This document shows, piece after piece, positions 1,344-19,392 of a DNA stretch of 20,000 bases (the first letter of the stretch is position 1; each line of letters begins with the position of its first letter). The notes under the pieces are model-generated. The model did not search any database and was not told the origin of the DNA. It worked only from the letters and a program-made list of their open reading frames with translations. The stretch is from the NCBI GenBank assembly GCA_000934665.2, contig KZ537974.1:170264-190263 (forward strand), given 5' to 3'. The stretch is from Catajapyx aquilonaris. Taxonomy: Eukaryota. A program made the position numbers and the translations under genes.

Positions 1344-1508
1344 TATGAGCTTCGCCTGGTGGCATCGGACAACCTGAATGAGAACTTCACCACAGTTGTG
1401 ATCCACGTGAAAGACGTGAATGACAATCCGCCAGTCTTCGACCGGCCTACATACGAGACACAGATCACCGAAGAGGATGACCGCAACCTGCCCAAGAGGG
1501 TCCTCCAG
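1344..1508 (+). CDS. CadN: N-cadherin (DN-cadherin type) coding exon, first member of a duplicated exon pair (Drosophila exon-13-like); second half of one cadherin repeat and first half of the next
   Basis: Acceptor ttcctctgtcAG at 1342-1343, donor CAG|GTcact at 1509. 165 nt, phase 0-0. Encodes YELRLVASDNLNENFTTVVIHVKDVNDNPPVFDRPTYETQITEEDDRNLPKRVLQ with the cadherin Ca-binding motif DxNDNxP; closely matches DN-cadherin as I recall it. Confidence 0.93.
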
Positions 1509-1722
1509 GTCACTCGGATTTGATGGGTCAAATCGCTGACCTGTTGGAGGAATAAGCCAGCTGATGGCATCTTCCTTCAACTGGACATGACCCTACTCTC
1601 TATGTGTTGTGTTGTGCTTTTATGTTGTGCATGCTTTTTTTTTATACTTATGTTTCAGGTATTTGCACGGCTAATCCCGCTTGATTTATTCTCGTTTTTT
1701 TGCCATTTTTGTTTTTTTATAG

Positions 1723-1887
1723 TATAACCTGACCCTAGTCGCTTCCGACAGCCTGAACGAAAACGAGACCACTATTATCATTTACGTGAACGACGTGAAT
1801 GACATGCCGCCTGTTTTTAACCAATCCTTGTACACGACCGAGATTGAGGAAGAGATTTCTGGTCCGTTTCGTCACAAGCTTTTGCAG
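1723..1887 (+). CDS. CadN: N-cadherin alternative (mutually exclusive) exon, paralogue of 1344-1508
   Basis: Not represented in frame in the ORF track. Long U-rich tract, AG at 1721-1722, donor CAG|GTatta at 1888. Also 165 nt, phase 0-0, no stops: YNLTLVASDSLNENETTIIIYVNDVNDMPPVFNQSLYTTEIEEEISGPFRHKLLQ, 30/55 identical to the preceding exon without gaps. Confidence 0.9.
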
Positions 1888-2327
1888 GTATTATTGTTGT
1901 CACTGTACTTGGAGGAAAATTACTGCTATAGTAATTAAGGCAGATTCCATGTTAAAGTTATATAAGAGCAAAAGAATTATTTTTCCTCCATGTCTTCCTG
2001 GCCTATAGCTATGCTTTTATTTTGAAAACGTTAGTTGACTGTTTTCCTTCCTTTTGCATGACACACGGCTCTGGAGACGGACTTTTCCTAAATCCTGACA
2101 ATGTCAACACAAAGTAAGCCAGCAGTATCCTAGTAAATGCGCTCCAGAGCCTATTTAACATTGATGACAAGTCGCATTTTCTTCGCAATCAGAGTGAAAG
2201 TCCTCTCAGATAAATGCGGCCATTTTTTCTTCCTCCTACTCCTCCTCCTCTTTTTTTTATCTCTTCTCTCTCCAGAGATGGAAGCAATCTCTGTAAAAGC
2301 AGGCAGTTGACTGTCTTTTCTATGCAG

Positions 2328-2465
2328 GTGACTGCCACCGATGGAGATAAGGACCGTCCTCAGAATATCGTCTACTTTCTGACGGGTCAAGGAATTGACC
2401 CCGAGAATCCGACCAATAGCAAGTTCGACATCAACAGAACCACCGGCGAAATCTACGTCCTCAAG
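2328..2465 (+). CDS. CadN: N-cadherin constitutive exon (cadherin repeat)
   Basis: ttttctatgcAG|GTG...CTCAAG|GTatgt. 138 nt: VTATDGDKDRPQNIVYFLTGQGIDPENPTNSKFDINRTTGEIYVLK, containing the AxDxD motif. Confidence 0.95.
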
Positions 2466-3681: not shown

Positions 3682-4889
3682 GTCAGTGTTACATCAAAAT
3701 TTGTGATGAAAATATTCACCAAGCTGTATAATTTTATGCGCCTTACTGAATAACCTAAATTTAACCCGTATTTAGCAAAAGTAACTTAACCATCTCAGCT
3801 CTAAATTAACATTAATGAACAATTGTGCGTGTAAATTATGCTGAAGATCTGGATGACTTTTCATTGGATGAGTGAACAGTGGTTTCACAGACGGGCCACC
3901 CTGAATCTGCATAATTCATGCAGAGAGCCAAGGTGTCCTTGTCGCTTGAAACCCCCTCTTGGCCCTATAGGGCCGCACCTCTTTAATAACCCTGCGCCAA
4001 CAAAGGTTTTTTTTTTTTTTTGCCCCCCACCCCTCCCCCCTCGAACTGGAAGGACAACTACGAAACTGCTGCATAATGTATACCTCATAATCAGGAAGCC
4101 CTATTTCTGTTCGTAGCCGAATTCAACCGTGCAGCTGATGGGCGAATATCATCCGGCTCACTTGCTTCACTCGCCTGCAACTGAAGATGTGCCGTTATTA
4201 AAATGCCACATCGTTTCATATTTCACGCTAAAAATCCTCGTAAAAAGGGCCGTACATGATTGTAATGAGTTTTGGAGCGGGTACAAAAACGGTGAAGCTC
4301 AGCTCTAAATGCGACTCACTGTTTGATTACGCTCGACTTTATTTTTTTAAAAAAAATTGTGTAATTTTTGTGCGTGCCGGGTTTTTACTGAAAACGGTGG
4401 GGTGATGAAGTGGCAAAGCGTGAGAGCGCATTTGGGGACCGAACTTTAGGGAAATCAGATCCGATTCGGCGGAGTGTCATCCCAGCAGCCTTTTCCCCGC
4501 ACCATTTCGGGATGATTCAACCCCTAGTCTATTTTTCAGACCAGTTTTTTTTTTTATCCGGTGCAAAAATACGGGTTAGGCGCGTCGGATGGTAATAACT
4601 CCGAGTCGTCAATTAGAGAGGCTGGTACGCAGATGCGGCTGCAATTTGCGAGTCGGCGCGTGTCCTGCGGCTCCAAAGATTGCGGATATAATTTGTGGGA
4701 TGGCGGACAGGGCGAATTAATCAAGGATCTCGGTTTTTTTTATGTATATATTTCAAGCTCGTCCAATTGATCTGCGCTTCGCTTACAGATCCTCGTTAAA
4801 TTCAAGCGGCGCCAACATGTGGTCTGCTCACAAATCGGACCTATACTAGAACCGGATAGAGTGTGTATAAATATAATTTTTGTTTACAG

Positions 4890-6568
4890 GTATGGTGGTG
4901 ATGACGATGACGGCTGTGGACTATGATGACCCCAACGAGGGAACCAATGCTCGTCTGACTTATTCGATTGAGAAGAATGTGATTGATGAGGAGCAGGGCA
5001 GGCCGATCTTTGAGATCGAGCCGGAGACGGGTGTGATCAAGACCGCGGTGTGTTGCTTGGACCGGGAGAAGACACCGGATTATTCGATACAAGTGGTGGC
5101 AATGGACGGAGGGGGGTTGAAAGGGACAGGGACAGCCTCTATACGAGTGAAAGATATCAATGATATGCCGCCGCAGTTCACGAAGGACGAGTGGTACACC
5201 GAGGTTGATGAGACTGACGGGACCAATCTGCCGGACATGCCCATCCTGACGGTGACGGTGCACGATGAGGATGAGACCAACAAGTTCCACTACAAGGTGA
5301 TCGAGAACAGCGGGTACGGAGCGGACAAGTTCACTATGGTCAGGAACAACGATGGTACAGGCTCGCTCAAGATCGTGCAGCCCCTGGACTTTGAGGATCC
5401 GCTGCAGAGCCAAGGCTTCCGGTTCCGAATCCAGGTCAACGACAAGGGAGAGGACAATGACAACGACAAGTACCACGTGGCGTACGCTTGGGTAAGGGTG
5501 ACCCTGAGGGACATCAACGACAACAAGCCACAGTTTGAACGGCCCAACATCGAAGTGTCCGTGTACGAGAACGCAGAGGTTGGGAAGAGCCTGGAGACAT
5601 TCAAGGCGACTGATCCGGACCAGGGCGGGAAGAGCAAGGTGTCGTACGCGATAGACCGCACGTCGGACAGGAAGCGACAGTTCTCGATCAATCAGGACGG
5701 TACTGTCAGCATCCAGAGGAGCCTGGACAGAGAGGAGACCCCGCGTCACCAGGTGAAGATCCTGGCCATCGACGACGGCGTCCCACCCAAGACGGCCACT
5801 GCCACGCTCACAGTCATAGTGCAAGACATAAACGACAATGCGCCCACGTTCCTGAAAGACTACCGTCCGGTCCTGCCCGAACACGTGCCGCCTAGGAAAG
5901 TGGTGGAAGTGCTGGCCACCGACGACGACGACCGGTCCAAAGGCAACGGACCTCCGTTCACCTTCAGGATGGACCCCAATGCGGACGACATCATACGCGC
6001 GTCCTTCAAAGTGGAGCACGATCCGAAGGGCGCCAACGGAGACGGAATGGCCATCGTGTCGTCGTTGCGGTCGTTTGATCGCGAGCAGCAGAAGGAGTAC
6101 CTGGTTCCCATTGTGATAAAAGACTCCGGAAATCCAGCCATGTCCGGCACCAGCACGTTGACGGTCATCATCGGAGACGTGAACGACAACAAGATGCAGC
6201 CAGGATCCAAGGAGATATTTGTGTACAACTACATGGGACAGGCTCCTGACACCGAGATCGGTCGCGTGTACGTGTACGACTTGGACGACTGGGATCTTCC
6301 AGACAAGAAGTTCTACTGGGATGGACCAGACCACCCGTACTTCCGGTTAGATGAGGACACTGGAATGATCACGATGAAGCGGGGCACTAGAGAAGGGCGG
6401 TACCACTTGCGGTTCAAAGTGTACGACCGGAAGCACACCCAGACGGACGTGCCGGCCAATGTCACGGTCTTGGTGAAGGAAATACCTTACGATGCTGTGA
6501 TGAACTCCGGGTCAGTCAGGATAGCTGGGCTTACAGACGAGGACTTTATCCGGATATGGGACTACAGG
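4890..6568 (+). CDS. CadN: N-cadherin large exon encoding about five membrane-proximal cadherin repeats
   Basis: tttacAG|GT ATG...TACAGG|GTgagt. 1679 nt, phase 1-0, inside ORF 4880..6643. Repeated LDRE/LDFE/FDRE, AxDxD and DxNDN motifs. Confidence 0.97.
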
Positions 6569-6898
6569 GTGAGTCACTGCTGGATGGCTGGCACAATGCA
6601 TTGCTTTTGGTTCATGTCACTGGATCAAATCATATCGCAATAATCAATAATGGCATGAATATAAATATGCAAAAATTAATTGTTCCTTTTGCAACACTCA
6701 TCCCAGTGAGTAGTTAATATGTAACAGCTCGTGGACTTTGAGAAACTCTTTGTCACTCTGTACTGTAGTTGAAAATTGAAATGATGGTGCAGTCATTCCA
6801 TTATGAAAGAAATTGTTTGTGCCCAACATGTTTCCATTGTAAGAAGCAGAAATGCACTGGAAATTTTCCAGGACCAAAGTCGCATACTATATCTAGGG

Positions 6899-8431: not shown

Positions 8432-8637
8432 AGTAGGCTATAATTATTTTTAGTGAATGACGCCCTGAATTACTTACATTCTTTAATATTAATTTGCAAT
8501 AATGTGACTCGCAGTAAAGTTGAATGCCATGTATAGGTTGAATTCATGATTTTAAAATGGGGAAGTGGTTCATGTCAGTGTATATCCTAAAATGGTGCTG
8601 AAATGCAATGCTGAAACATGTTTGCTTACTTCTCCAG

Positions 8638-9729
8638 AGCCAATCTGTGATGAAGAGCAAGGCAGAGCGTTTTCGAGAGAAGATTGCTGAGTTGATGAAC
8701 ACCATGGAAGACAATGTGGATGTGTTCAGTGTCCAGCTTCACCAGCAGCGTCCTCCAGTAACAGACGTCCGGTTCTCTGCACATGGGTCACCTTACTACA
8801 AACCAGTGCGCTTAAATGGTCTTATATTGATGCACAGAGAGGAGATTGAGCGAGACGTGGGTGTCAATATTACCATGGTAGGGATAGATGAGTGCTTGTA
8901 TGAGAACCAGGCTTGTGAGGGCAGCTGCACCAACACTCTTGATGTGTCTCCACTGCCATACACTGTCAATGCAAACAAGACTGCATTAGTAGGAGTGAGA
9001 GTCGAGGTGATTCCAGAATGCACGTGTGGTGCCAGGAACTTCACCAAAGGCGAATCGTGCAGAAATAATCCTTGCTACAATGGTGGCCGGTGTGTTGAAG
9101 GACGCTACGGGTTAAGTTGCCTCTGTTTGGTTGGGTACGATGGACCAAGGTGTCAGCAGACGACACGCAGCTTCAGAGGAAACGGGTGGGCATGGTATCC
9201 ACCACTAGCCATGTGTGACGACTCACACATCAGCCTCGAGTTTATCACTCGCAAGGAAGATGGGGTGTTGCTGTACAATGGCCCCATTGTCCCACCTGAG
9301 CATGAAGAGGTGATGGTGTCAGACTTTATATCCCTGGAACTGGAGAAGGGAGATCCAAGGCTGTTGGTTGACTTTGGGTCTGGAACTCTGGAGCTGAGGA
9401 TCAAGACCAAGAAGGGTTTGGCAGACGGCGAGTGGCACAGGATTGATGTGTTCTGGAACACTGAGAATGTGGAGATGACTGTGGACTTCTGCAAGACGGC
9501 AGACGTATCTGAGCTGGAAGACGGGTCACCTCCAGAATTTGATGGAGCTAGCTGCCAGGCCAAGGGGGTCATCACCCCATTTAATGAGTACCTGAATGTG
9601 AACACACCTCTGCAGATTGGCGGCATGTATGTTGAGCAGTTTGACCCCATTCAGTTCAGGTGGAGCTACATGCCTAACCTGGGCAAGTTCTTCGATGGGT
9701 GCATAAGGAACATCATCCACAATAGCATG
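8638..9729 (+). CDS. CadN: N-cadherin exon: non-chordate cadherin domain, EGF-like repeat, first laminin-G domain
   Basis: cttctccAG|AGC...AGCATG|GTgagt. 1092 nt, phase 0-0, inside ORF 8608..9807. EGF motif CxNGGxC...CxCxxGYxGxxC; LamG motifs DGEWH, LQIGG and FDGCIRN. Confidence 0.97.
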
Positions 9730-9866
9730 GTGAGTGTACCTGTGATTTGCATGCATTGTCTCTTTTTTTTTTTAAAGCTGGTTACACACCTTGCTAATAG
9801 GCTATGACAAAATAATGTATCCAGTTCAACTGGTAAAACTAACTGATATCTTTTTTAAATGCACAG

Positions 9867-10708
9867 ATATATGATCTGGCACACCCTGGTCTGAGTCGCA
9901 ACAGCCAGAGTGGGTGCCCCCAGGTGGAGGATGTGTGCCTGGGCAATGATGTGACCGTCCGGTGTGCTGAGCATGGAGTATGCACAGGCAGCTTTACAGA
10001 ACCTCGGTGCGAGTGCCGCCCTGGGTGGACTGGCCCCTCTTGCTCCGTCCCAACCATACCCACCACTTTCAAACCACAGAGCTACGTCAAGTATGCCCTA
10101 TCCTTCGAGCCTGACCGTTACGTCACCCTGGTTCAGCTCAGGTTCCGCACCCGAGAGGAGCATGGGGAACTCTTCCGAGTGTCTGACCAACACAACCGGG
10201 AATATGGTATTCTGGAGATTAAGGACAGCCGGCTTCACTTCCGATACAACCTGAACAGCCTGCGCACAGAGGAAAAGAGTCTGTGGCTCAGTGCCCTCAC
10301 CGTTGATGATGGGCAGTGGCATACAGCCAGAGTCAGTCGGTTTGGGTCAGTTGCCATTTTGGAACTTGACGGAGGTGAAGGAAGGAGGTACAATGAGAGC
10401 TTCAGCTTCGAGGGGCACCAATGGATGATGGTGGACAAGCAGGAAGGGGTGTATGCTGGCGGGAAGGCTGAGTACACTGGAGTTCGCACCTTTGAAGTGT
10501 ATGCAGACTACCAGAAGGGTTGCCTGGACGACATAAGGCTTGAAGGAAAGCAGCTGCCTCTGCCACCTGCTCTCAATGGGACCCAATGGGGACAAGCAAC
10601 CATGGCCAGGAACCTAGACAGAGGTTGCCCCTCAAACAACCCTTGCTCCAACGTCATTTGCCCAGAGCCGTTCGAGTGTGTCGATCTCTGGAATGAGTAC
10701 GAGTGCAC
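9867..10708 (+). CDS. CadN: N-cadherin exon: EGF-like repeat, second laminin-G domain, start of next EGF
   Basis: gcacAG|ATA TAT GAT (IYDLAHPGLSRNS...) to GAGTGCAC|GTgagt. 842 nt, phase 0-2. Motifs DDGQWH and GCLDDIR. Confidence 0.96.
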
Positions 10709-11092
10709 GTGAGTACACACACCTGTTTGTTATACTGGAGTCGCTCCGCCAAAAGTAGCACTAAATATATTAACAGCATGGGAGTTACATGCACATTTAG
10801 TTTTATGTGAGGGACATGTCACTTTTGTGTATTGGATCTCTGAGAAAAAGTAATATTGTCTCCTTTCATTTTAATTTAATGAGTGCAGAACTTGCACAGG
10901 CTGCAGTAGTACCTCAGATGAAAATTTGACCATCTTTTAAAAGGATACAAAATAATAATCAAATAATATAGTTGGAATTTTAGGTTGCAAAGTAAGCTTT
11001 AGTAAGCAAGTGACATTCCTCTCGATAATCACAAGTAGTGTCACAAACCTCTGCATGCACTGGTCTTGACTAACACCTCGGTGGCGGTGTAG

Positions 11093-11334
11093 GTGCGGCG
11101 AAGGCAAGGTGGTGACACCTGATGGGAAGGGCTGCATGGATAAGAATGAGTGCCTTGAGAACCCGTGCCTGAACGGAGGCACATGCATCAACCAAGATCC
11201 ACGCTACCGCTACCAGTGCATCTGCCCAGAGGGATTCTGGGGGGAGAACTGCGAGCTGGTGCAGGAGGGGCAGATACTCAGGCTTAGCATGGGCGCCCTG
11301 GCTGCCATTCTTGTTTGTCTACTCATCATACTCA
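11093..11334 (+). CDS. CadN: N-cadherin alternative exon (Drosophila exon-18-like, first copy): Ca-binding EGF and N-terminal part of the transmembrane helix
   Basis: ggtgtAG|G TGC GGC...CTC A|GTgagt. 242 nt, phase 2-1: CGEGKVVTPDGKGCMDKNECLENPCLNGGTCINQDPRYRYQCICPEGFWGENCELVQEGQILRLSMGALAAILVCLLIIL. Confidence 0.94.
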
Positions 11335-11557
11335 GTGAGTTTACACATGAACCAATGAAGCACCTCTTCCTTCCTGCTTTACAACCTTTTGCTCACCAAT
11401 CCCTGTCACAATATATTTTTAGTTAGATCTAACCCCTACTGGTGGTGATGGGTGCACACAACTTATTAACTAACCTGGCGGAGTGTTCCTGTTTATACGA
11501 CCATTCATTGCACACTTTGTCGCAAATTTACTGGTACCATAAACTCCCGAAATTCAG

Positions 11558-11802
11558 GTGCCCACCAGGTCGCACGAAGCAGCTTGACAAGTGCATTGAC
11601 ATCGACGAATGTGCCTGGATCATCACTCCATGTCAGAATGATGCTGTTTGCATCAACATTGATGGTTATGAGATGTACCGTTGTGATTGTCTGCCTGGAT
11701 ATTCAGGGAAGGATTGCGAAGTGGAAGTGCTGCCATCTGCAACCATCACTACCTCAGCCGAGTTCCTCCTCACCATATGCATTTGCGTTTTTGTTCTCCT
11801 GA
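11558..11802 (+). CDS. CadN: N-cadherin alternative exon (exon-18-like, second copy): Ca-binding EGF and alternative transmembrane half
   Basis: aattcAG|G TGC CCA...CTG A|GTaaat. 245 nt, same phase 2-1: CPPGRTKQLDKCIDIDECAWIITPCQNDAVCINIDGYEMYRCDCLPGYSGKDCEVEVLPSATITTSAEFLLTICICVFVLL. Cysteine pattern and hydrophobic end parallel the previous exon. Confidence 0.92.
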
Positions 11803-13462: not shown

Positions 13463-13657
13463 ATCCTGCGGCTGCTCCCTTGGGCCCTCCCATCGTCCCC
13501 ACCATGGTGGGAGGCGAGCCCAACGTGGGTGTGTTCATCGATGAGCACAAAAAGCGAGCAGACAACGATCCCAATGCTCCGCCATTTGACGACCTGCGAA
13601 ACTATGCCTACGAAGGTGGAGGCAGCACTGCGGGATCACTCTCCTCATTAGCCTCAG
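13463..13657 (+). CDS. CadN: N-cadherin exon: cytoplasmic domain (beta-catenin-binding region)
   Basis: ggcattttAG|AT CCT...TCA G|GTagtt. 195 nt, phase 1-1: ...[33 protein letters not shown]. Confidence 0.95.
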
Positions 13658-17100: not shown

Positions 17101-17270
17101 GACAAAGGGGGACGTTGGTAGTGATAACCACCATCAGCACTTTTCGTTCCTGTGATTTTAGAGACTGTCAAAAAAATTCTCGTGCTCTGTTTTGGTGTTG
17201 TGTTTTTGCAGCTGTGATTTCTGTAGCTGTATAGCTCTATACCGAAATAAAAATTACACCAGTTCTGAAA
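14128..17270 (+). other. Probable long 3' UTR of the cadherin gene
   Basis: Non-coding, A/U-tract rich. AATAAA at 16542-16547 and 17246-17251. The true end is inferred, not observed. Confidence 0.5.
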
Positions 17271-18069
17271 GTTAACAATGGCGGTTTGTGAAGGGATGAA
17301 TGTCGTATTATGGATTTTGCACTCCTTTCCAGAAATATAGGGACAACCTCCAGATGCATGGGTGTTCAGCTGGCTAAATGCAGCTTTGAAGACTGATGAA
17401 TGGTGAACAAGGTTTGGGAAATTGCATGTTGTATGGCATCAGGCTAAAAATGTGCAGTAGGCCTACTGTACTGGTACTATTGCAGAAGTTTGATCATATG
17501 TAAGGTTGTAATATTCAACCTTGCACAGAAGCTGTATTATTGCTTCTACATTGTTAATTGTCAGATTAATTTCTGAAAGGTCTTGTTGACAATGTGGAGT
17601 CAATACAAGTGTCTGGTTGTAGGAATGATAGCTTCAAATGAAGTGGAATTGAGCTCAGGTGCATTTCACTTCATCAGAGTTCAGAGGCAATGAGAGCCAT
17701 GTTTAATTTATTGCATGCAGTCTAATTATTATGTAGTCTAATTATCCTCCTTCAGGTAATTAAATCTTAGAGCTGTGCAGATACTGCAGTTCAGGCCAAT
17801 CAGACGGTGTCAGTTTATTGGCAAAGTGGGTAAATCCCGAAGTAAATCCTCTTGAAGAGCTGACGAGTGTTCTCGAGAGCTACCGTATTGTGAAATACAG
17901 TATGACGTACCCAGTGTCCACCCCGCTTGTTTTGCAGTAATGATTTAATAATTTTGATTAGTAAAAAATGTACTCCACTTTATGAAATGGTATACGGACA
18001 CTCTTAATTCGGTTTATTATTTCTCATCACAAGCGAGCATGTTCTGTTGGCACCCCTGAGGACGCCCTC

Positions 18070-18089
18070 NNNNNNNNNNNNNNNNNNNN
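18070..18089. other. Assembly gap preceding poly-C runs
   Basis: N run followed by C-rich low-complexity sequence. Confidence 0.99.
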
Positions 18090-18246
18090 CTCCCCCTCTC
18101 CCCCCCCCGCCCCCCCCCCCTCCCCCTCCTTCCGTAAGTCGGCCATCTTTGCTCAGACGCCGGTTCGACGTACGACTCACGCGGCACGTCGTGTCGGGGA
18201 CTGTTCTTCTTCTCGTCCGCGGCGTCCATCGGAAGGAAGTGTCAAG
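18090..18246 (+). promoter_or_regulatory. CpG-rich promoter/5' UTR of SmB
   Basis: Sudden CpG-dense, GC-rich stretch ahead of the ATG. YY1/Pho-like GCCATCTT at 18142-18149. A CCAAT box (GGCCAATCAG, 17794-17803) lies upstream across the gap. Confidence 0.55.
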
Positions 18247-19231: not shown

Positions 19232-19308
19232 TGTGCAGGTGGGACCCATGGTACACCAGCAACACAACAGTGTAAAATGATTGGTGCGAAATGGGTCCCA
19301 CCTGTATA
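19232..19308. repeat. Short inverted repeat/hairpin
   Basis: CAGGTGGGACCCAT (19236-19249) and ATGGGTCCCACCTG (19291-19304) form a perfect 14-bp stem, extendable with G-T pairs. Confidence 0.75.
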
Positions 19309-19392
19309 TTTAGGGACCTTGCGCCATGACAAACTAAACGAAAAGCACCTATAACAGTGTGTTCGTACCATGGTCTAATAATAATCAGGCTC

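Follow-up and report, generated by a model that had tools for sequence, protein, structure and literature searches.

Hairpins that mask a donor and RNA structures that compete within clusters of mutually exclusive exons are both known kinds of element. In the MAPT (tau) gene, as described in PMC9198270, a hairpin masks the donor of exon 10; its stability sets the access of U1, and it can be opened by DDX5. The same source names a hairpin that controls exon 6B of chicken beta-tropomyosin. The docking/selector systems described for Dscam1, 14-3-3zeta, Mhc and srp consist of competing intronic structures in mutually exclusive clusters (PMC6071210). Arthropod N-cadherin has three pairs of mutually exclusive exons, ME-7, ME-13 and ME-18, which are reported to be conserved from insects to Daphnia and to undergo a concerted developmental switch (PMC2655722, PMC3245913). 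In the available text of Hsu et al. 2009 (PMC2655722) the term 'secondary structure' occurs 0 times, thus RNA structure is not treated there, and our literature search found no paper on RNA structure or on a cis mechanism in N-cadherin exon choice. Here we analyse a predicted fold at the donor of an exon of the ME-7a type.

The plus strand of the window (the whole stretch of 20,000 nucleotides that was analysed) carries a classical invertebrate (N-type) cadherin gene, as judged from its Pfam domains (Cadherin, Ig_Shg, Laminin_G, EGF, CADH_Y-type_LIR; Table 1). The exons at 1344-1508 and 1723-1887 are equal in length and phase and 55% identical as protein; they form a homologous tandem pair. 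Two tandem same-phase exons of 165 nt, in a classical cadherin that also has Ig_Shg, EGF, laminin-G and cytoplasmic domains, are the layout of the ME-7 pair, and by this match to the published description we identify the two exons as the counterpart of ME-7a/7b in arthropod N-cadherin. We assign the labels 7a and 7b provisionally, on exon order and homology, and mutually exclusive use in the mRNA would follow, by analogy, from the description of Hsu et al. (PMC2655722). Farther downstream, 11070-11330 and 11433-11800 are successive open frames, in each of which a hydrophobic segment comes after an EGF-like stretch; they are probably the ME-18a/18b transmembrane pair of N-cadherin, a naming that we infer.

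Table 1. Positions of the exons, predicted helices and motifs in the window
Feature	Position	Strand	Remarks
Proximal mutually exclusive exon (ME-7a type)	1344..1508	+	165 nt, 55 codons, phase 0, open frame
5' splice site CAG/GTCACT of proximal exon	1506..1514	+	predicted paired -3..+4; +5, +6 free
Three-way-junction RNA fold, predicted	1497..1594	+	36 bp, one G-U, no internal mismatch
Outer stem	1497-1502/1589-1594	+	minimum-free-energy structure
TCC/GGA helix	1504-1506/1583-1585	+	minimum-free-energy structure
Hairpin i, contains donor	1507..1542: 1507-1512/1537-1542 and 1517-1523/1528-1534, loop TGGG	+	minimum-free-energy structure
Hairpin ii, contains TGGAGGAA copy 1545-1552	1543..1581: 1543-1552/1572-1581 and cap 1556-1559/1565-1568	+	minimum-free-energy structure
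TCAG/GTATT, acceptor-like site directly followed by donor-like GT	1656..1664	+	preceded by T-rich tract (tract and site together 1635-1664), 64 nt before distal exon
Distal mutually exclusive exon (ME-7b type)	1723..1887	+	165 nt, phase 0; donor CAG/GTATTA
Second TGGAGGAA copy (TGGAGGAAAA)	1910..1919	+	22 nt past donor of distal exon
TTTTCCTCCA, complement of TGGAGGAA(AA), candidate docking site	1981..1990	+	
Next constitutive exon (VTATDGDKDRPQ...)	2328..2465	+	starts VTATDGD; downstream of both alternative exons
Long open exon	4877-6640	+	four Pfam Cadherin domains
Exon	8602-9729	+	DE-cadherin Ig-like domain, EGF domain, laminin-G domain
Exon	9843-10709	+	EGF, laminin-G
Exon	13474-13650	+	cadherin cytoplasmic motif

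A metagenome scan with the two-exon alignment as query returned 77 loci, all from distant relatives: none had an exon nucleotide identity above 85%, the best value being 85%. The proximal exon was present in 31 of the 77, where it is 85-95% identical at the amino-acid level across its full length of 55 residues (54 in L027-L029); in these 31 loci it ends with the same codon, followed by GT. This identity and the common end point confirm that 1344-1508 is a real exon, as the original prediction had assumed. Second copies, of the distal-exon type, were matched in the relatives' loci by tblastn, and the two-exon layout recurs in many loci. Scanning genome contigs for close relatives gave two bacterial cadherin-like matches only, which were of no use, and a scan of viral contigs for relatives of the exon pair gave 0 matches. 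Between the proximal exon and four relatives there are 25-33 nucleotide differences and only 3-5 amino-acid differences; judged by these substitutions, the exon is under purifying selection. Such selection implies that the exon is spliced into mRNA and that its donor is used in this lineage, and since the donor is in use, a mask on it cannot be a remnant on a dead exon. In one locus (L026, 195-500) a 7a-type exon continues in frame into the peptide of the next exon; neither an intron nor a 7b-type exon lies between the two, and the sequence upstream of the 7a-type exon is non-coding. This could be an intron-loss or a partly processed copy in another species; the intron-less join places the intron border exactly at the donor on which the original prediction was built.

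At both +3 and +5 the proximal exon's donor carries C, which departs from the 5' splice-site consensus, and the donor is weak, as had been claimed. For comparison the loci were grouped by eye into 16 further lineages, 17 with the window. A pyrimidine stands at +3 in 10 of the 17 lineages for the proximal (7a-type) donors vs. 1 of 12 for the distal-exon donors (Fisher p 0.008). By this count a weak proximal-exon donor seems to be conserved across lineages, and the recurrently poor 7a-type donors lend support to the notion that the proximal exon depends on help.

The eight pairs of complementary segments from which the original prediction had assembled its structure are all present in the sequence. 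At minimum free energy, 1497-1594 forms a three-way junction at the donor, which agrees with the predicted arrangement. Its energy is -43.7 kcal/mol (z -4.76), a value equalled by 0 of 200 dinucleotide shuffles, and the wider segment 1480-1610, for which a folding z-score had been suggested as a check, folds with -49.1 kcal/mol (z -3.35; again 0 of 200 shuffles as stable). The donor helix and the outer helices of the prediction both exist, but they clash at the junction because C1506, A1507, G1508 and G1543 each fit one helix only, hence the pairs number 6 + 3 + 10 and not 7 + 5 + 10. The sole G-U of the fold, G1547-U1577, is in hairpin ii. On their own, the hairpin 1506-1543 has -15.6 kcal/mol and hairpin ii -18.3 kcal/mol. 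The same pairs were obtained, with probabilities of at least 0.95, in sequence contexts of 98, 131, 221, 379 and 601 nt and 1.2 kb.

The claim that a helix covers the donor was upheld by the model: each position from -3 to +4 is predicted to be paired at a probability of at least 0.9 in all contexts from 98 nt to 1.2 kb (unpaired probability at most 0.09 each). In a 181-nt context it costs 7.8 kcal/mol to open this donor, and 2.0 and 4.4 kcal/mol to open the donors of the distal exon and of the next exon, respectively. Other parts of the prediction had to be given up. The extension of the donor helix by TCCTC/GAGGA has a probability of 0.0, and the alternative helix 1525-1530/1588-1593, which was thought to free the donor, reaches 0.035 at most; with this helix near-absent from the ensemble, the proposed bistability does not hold. 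When the donor was forced open in silico, at a cost of 8.0 kcal/mol, hairpin ii and the outer stem stayed intact. By these fold calculations the element is a lock, thermodynamically static, and not a switch.

The rarity of the fold in the window was, like its helices and their stability, the exon pair and the weakness of the donor, computed directly. An RNALfold z-scan of the 20 kb gave 49 non-overlapping plus-strand folds with z of -3 or lower, among which 1495-1598 (z -5.22) ranks second. Three plus-strand folds in the 20 kb, taking up about 1.5% of the strand, reach z -5. On a fixed 100-nt grid, which cuts off the outer stem, the segment 1501-1600 takes 7th place among 394, at z -2.87. In local folding the donor 9-mer takes 5.86 kcal/mol to open; this puts it at the 97th percentile of all 9-mers, with 111 regions of the window buried at least as deep. 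By these calculations the whole fold is exceptional, and the burial of the donor is marked, not extreme. That one given donor should lie inside a fold of z -5 has a small chance; that one of about a dozen donors should do so is not improbable.

The window has other notable structures. The strongest fold is a near-perfect 78-nt hairpin at 19232-19309 (-45.9 kcal/mol, RNALfold z -9.28), beyond the 3' end of the cadherin gene, and strong local folds lie downstream of the gene at 17515-17629 (z -5.15) and 17188-17250 (z -4.86). A 57-nt inverted repeat with 88% complementarity, the arms 96 nt apart (19414-19470/19567-19623), may be a small mobile element. N runs at 197-240 and about 18070-18090, adjoining poly-G and poly-C tracts, are assembly gaps.

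The introns of the exon pair contain further sites that resemble splicing signals. The juxtaposition of an acceptor-like and a donor-like site at 1656-1664, where CAG runs straight into GTATTT, is like a recursive splice site, and we regard it as a candidate only; the a-b introns of 13 other lineages have no such juxtaposition. At 2226-2292 a long pyrimidine tract is followed by AG, the 15-nt ATGGAAGCAATCTCT and GTAAAA, 35 nt before the acceptor of exon 2328; this site may be a decoy or a pseudo-exon, and a fold with z -3.74 extends across 2254-2354. Hsu et al. 2009 (PMC2655722) describe a 12-nt micro-exon, 7a', in the insects they studied, whereas no AG-N12-GT candidate occurs here in 1509-2327, and we therefore rejected micro-exon 7a' as the identity of the element.

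None of the 16 other lineages has an intron resembling 1509-1594, and the introns do not align. When the last 12 exon and the first 102 intron bases of the 17 lineages were compared (MAFFT and RNAalifold), there were 0 consensus pairs. When 30 nt of exon were folded with 120 nt of intron, the window had z -2.67, the lowest of the 17 lineages, and the donor regions of the other 16 had z between -1.15 and +2.14. The mean unpaired probability of the donor is equal or lower in three of these 16, without a significant fold, and no 5- to 7-mer in the intron after the proximal exon was common to more of the 17 lineages than in shuffles. The conservation that was to be checked in orthologues was thus not observed in these lineages. 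As far as the data reach, the fold is specific to this lineage, the relatives being too distant to judge close kin; with relatives at 85% identity or less, the lack of conservation neither tests nor supports recent selection on the fold.

We tentatively favour, with somewhat less than even confidence, the reading of the element as a static mask, specific to this lineage, that would lower the use of the proximal exon by covering a donor poor in itself. As to folding in vivo, an effect on U1 and any selection for the fold, we infer the following. Hairpin i would form once about 35 nt of the intron have been made, pairing the donor from -2 to +4. The three-way junction would then be closed around it by the outer stem and hairpin ii, and U1 snRNP would have to displace a structure of about 8 kcal/mol from a poor donor. 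The fold would act as a static cis-repressor of the proximal exon and bias the choice to the distal one. The proximal exon would be used only if U1 bound before the 3' arm was transcribed (the donor and the start of this arm at 1537 are 28 nt apart), or if a helicase or RNA-binding protein opened the fold. A role of the fold in exon choice is, on the strength of the model, plausible. If the mask is strong, it would provide a simple and directly testable handle on exon choice in one species.

It is quite possible, although we lean against it, that the structure is neutral: its palindromic arms could have arisen by chance or by a short template switch (fold-back) during replication and have no measurable effect on splicing, since co-transcriptional loading of U1 and intron-bound proteins would prevent folding. 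Lineage specificity and the absence of consensus pairs in the 17 lineages speak for this, and so do the near-perfect helices with their single G-U. The opposite strand of 1497-1594 is almost as stable (-40.7 kcal/mol, z -4.29), as recent inverted copying at the DNA level would give; this near-equality is compatible with palindromes that formed recently in the DNA, and it carries no strand-specific signal of selection at the RNA level. Template switching is reported to make perfect RNA hairpins (PMC8794818). Moreover, folds at least as extreme occur away from the N-cadherin exons (19232-19309 and 17515-17629), and the burial of the donor does not go beyond the percentile given above. What neutrality does not readily explain is that three separate helices meet in one junction exactly at the donor of the regulated exon. 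Hairpin i would by itself, with the energy given above and a loop of less than 40 nt, be within the range that inhibits splicing, a range known for donor hairpins from in-vitro and in-vivo splicing work, and a strong mask would be visible to selection, because the exon is under purifying selection. A compact, highly structured intronic element could also be a hosted non-coding RNA gene or the remnant of a mobile element, e.g. of a miniature inverted-repeat element, but 12 bases of the fold are coding exon, and the searches for relatives of the element were negative. Rfam gave 0 matches in 1497-1594 at E up to 10, four weak matches in 1300-2400 that all lie outside the fold, and 0 matches at the gathering score in the whole window; a known RNA family is not supported by these searches. 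There is no second copy of 1497-1594 in the window, and each of three DNA runs of one sample, possibly the source of this DNA, yielded one identical full-length contig for 1200-2500, with no sequence differences among the contigs of the three runs and 0 partly matching contigs at 80% likeness or more, with the proviso that contig assemblies can hide repeats. A repeat element is likewise not supported, the sequence having no further copy in the window and a single contig per DNA run, and we consider a hosted gene or mobile element extremely improbable.

The original prediction had also coupled the fold to a selector motif, and a two-state docking/selector switch would indeed give the sequence another use: the copies of TGGAGGAA at 1545 and 1910 would compete for TTTTCCTCCA at 1981-1990. 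If 1545 paired with 1983, the distal exon would be looped out and use of the proximal one favoured, and the three-way junction, which sequesters both the 1545 copy and the donor, would be the opposite state. There are four copies of TGGAGGAA in the 20 kb vs. 0.9 expected, a number reached in 7 of 200 shuffles, and three of them fall within 1545-1990 (at 1545, at 1910 and, as complement, at 1983). The duplex of TTTTCCTCCA has -15.5 kcal/mol with the 1545 region and -16.4 kcal/mol with the 1910 region, and with -14.1 kcal/mol for the third the three duplex energies are comparable. The layout is moreover as in the model of PMC6071210, by which one arm of an intronic stem-loop is copied along when an exon duplicates. 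Against the switch, 93 of 2000 shuffled intron pairs contain an 8-mer in two direct copies and one complement, in 1476 of 2000 the two introns have some complementary 8-mer, and the introns contain a second such triple, which is AT-rich (TGCTTTTA); the TGGAGGAA pattern is, by these counts, marginal, and the proposed coupling weak. A long-range duplex of 8 bp is far weaker than the local fold at -43.7 kcal/mol, and hairpin ii keeps a probability of 0.998 in the 1.2-kb fold that contains the docking site. The local hairpin past the distal exon (1910-1919 with 1981-1990; -20.1 kcal/mol) has a z of only -2.03, and GGAGGA is found within the first 130 intron bases in one of the 17 lineages, the window alone. 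We regard such a switch as unlikely. Quite unlikely, too, is the combination of the two ideas, in which the fold with its hidden donor would be one state of a two-layer switch for the ME-7 choice. The folded state would lock the weak donor together with the proximal copy of TGGAGGAA; the distal copy would then be the local partner of the docking site at 1981-1990, and the distal exon would be used. A developmentally regulated helicase, an RNA-binding protein or slow elongation would open the fold and free the donor, after which 1545-1552 would pair with 1983-1990 and loop out the distal exon. If true, the concerted 7a-to-7b switch of arthropod N-cadherin would have its first cis-RNA mechanism, one of independent origin in one lineage. 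Finally, the exon-intron duplex could be a substrate of ADAR: the intron would supply the editing-site complementary sequence, the edited base would be A1497 (AGG, Arg to Gly) or A1507 (CAG, Gln to Arg, donor position -2), and editing would be linked to splicing, as it is at the R/G site of GluA2. The last 12 exon bases are in a fold with the intron, A1497 and A1507 both lie in helices, and the last residue of the proximal exon varies among Q, R, K and G in the lineages. Editing-site complementary sequences of ADAR form an extended exon-intron duplex of about 20 bp or more, and 1497-1594 falls short of this: its longest unbroken helix has 10 bp and is wholly intronic, and the exon contributes 11 paired bases (6 + 3 + 2). 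The gene family is neural (PMC3245913), which would suit editing, and our literature search found no paper on RNA editing of N-cadherin (CadN). We hold this explanation to be very improbable.

The static donor mask, which remains our preferred reading, is best compared with the systems from which we started. Its precedents, by analogy, would be MAPT exon 10 with DDX5 and exon 6B of chicken beta-tropomyosin, as both are described in PMC9198270. With the stem-loop of MAPT exon 10/intron 10 it shares that a predicted local structure spans the exon-intron junction and covers the 5' splice site of an alternative exon. As in MAPT, the donor lies in a helix, here a predicted one; the stability exceeds what base composition gives, and across the 17 lineages, the others all distant, the pairs are not conserved. 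The MAPT element, a single short hairpin, is proved genetically and biochemically, whereas here we have the prediction of a 98-nt three-way junction of about -44 kcal/mol and, unlike MAPT exon 10, the proximal exon is one of a mutually exclusive pair. In the latter respect it resembles exon 6B of chicken beta-tropomyosin, since here, too, the structure would repress one of two mutually exclusive exons. The 6B structure involves the exon and the upstream intron; it belongs to a vertebrate muscle gene and has no relation to 1497-1594 in sequence or architecture.

The likeness to the docking/selector systems consists in an intron motif beside each variant exon and one complementary site, in an arthropod cluster; the known examples pair over longer stretches and are conserved across species, whereas the pairing found here is 8 nt long, marginal against shuffles and confined to the window. 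As for the N-cadherin pair itself, the tandem homologous exons and the domain order are those that Hsu et al. 2009 (PMC2655722) describe for ME-7a/7b of arthropods, and in their account as in our loci orthologous copies are more alike than paralogous ones. In our judgement the fold is a good in-silico candidate and not a discovery. As a donor mask built as a three-way junction, it would join a small set of donor-masking structures.
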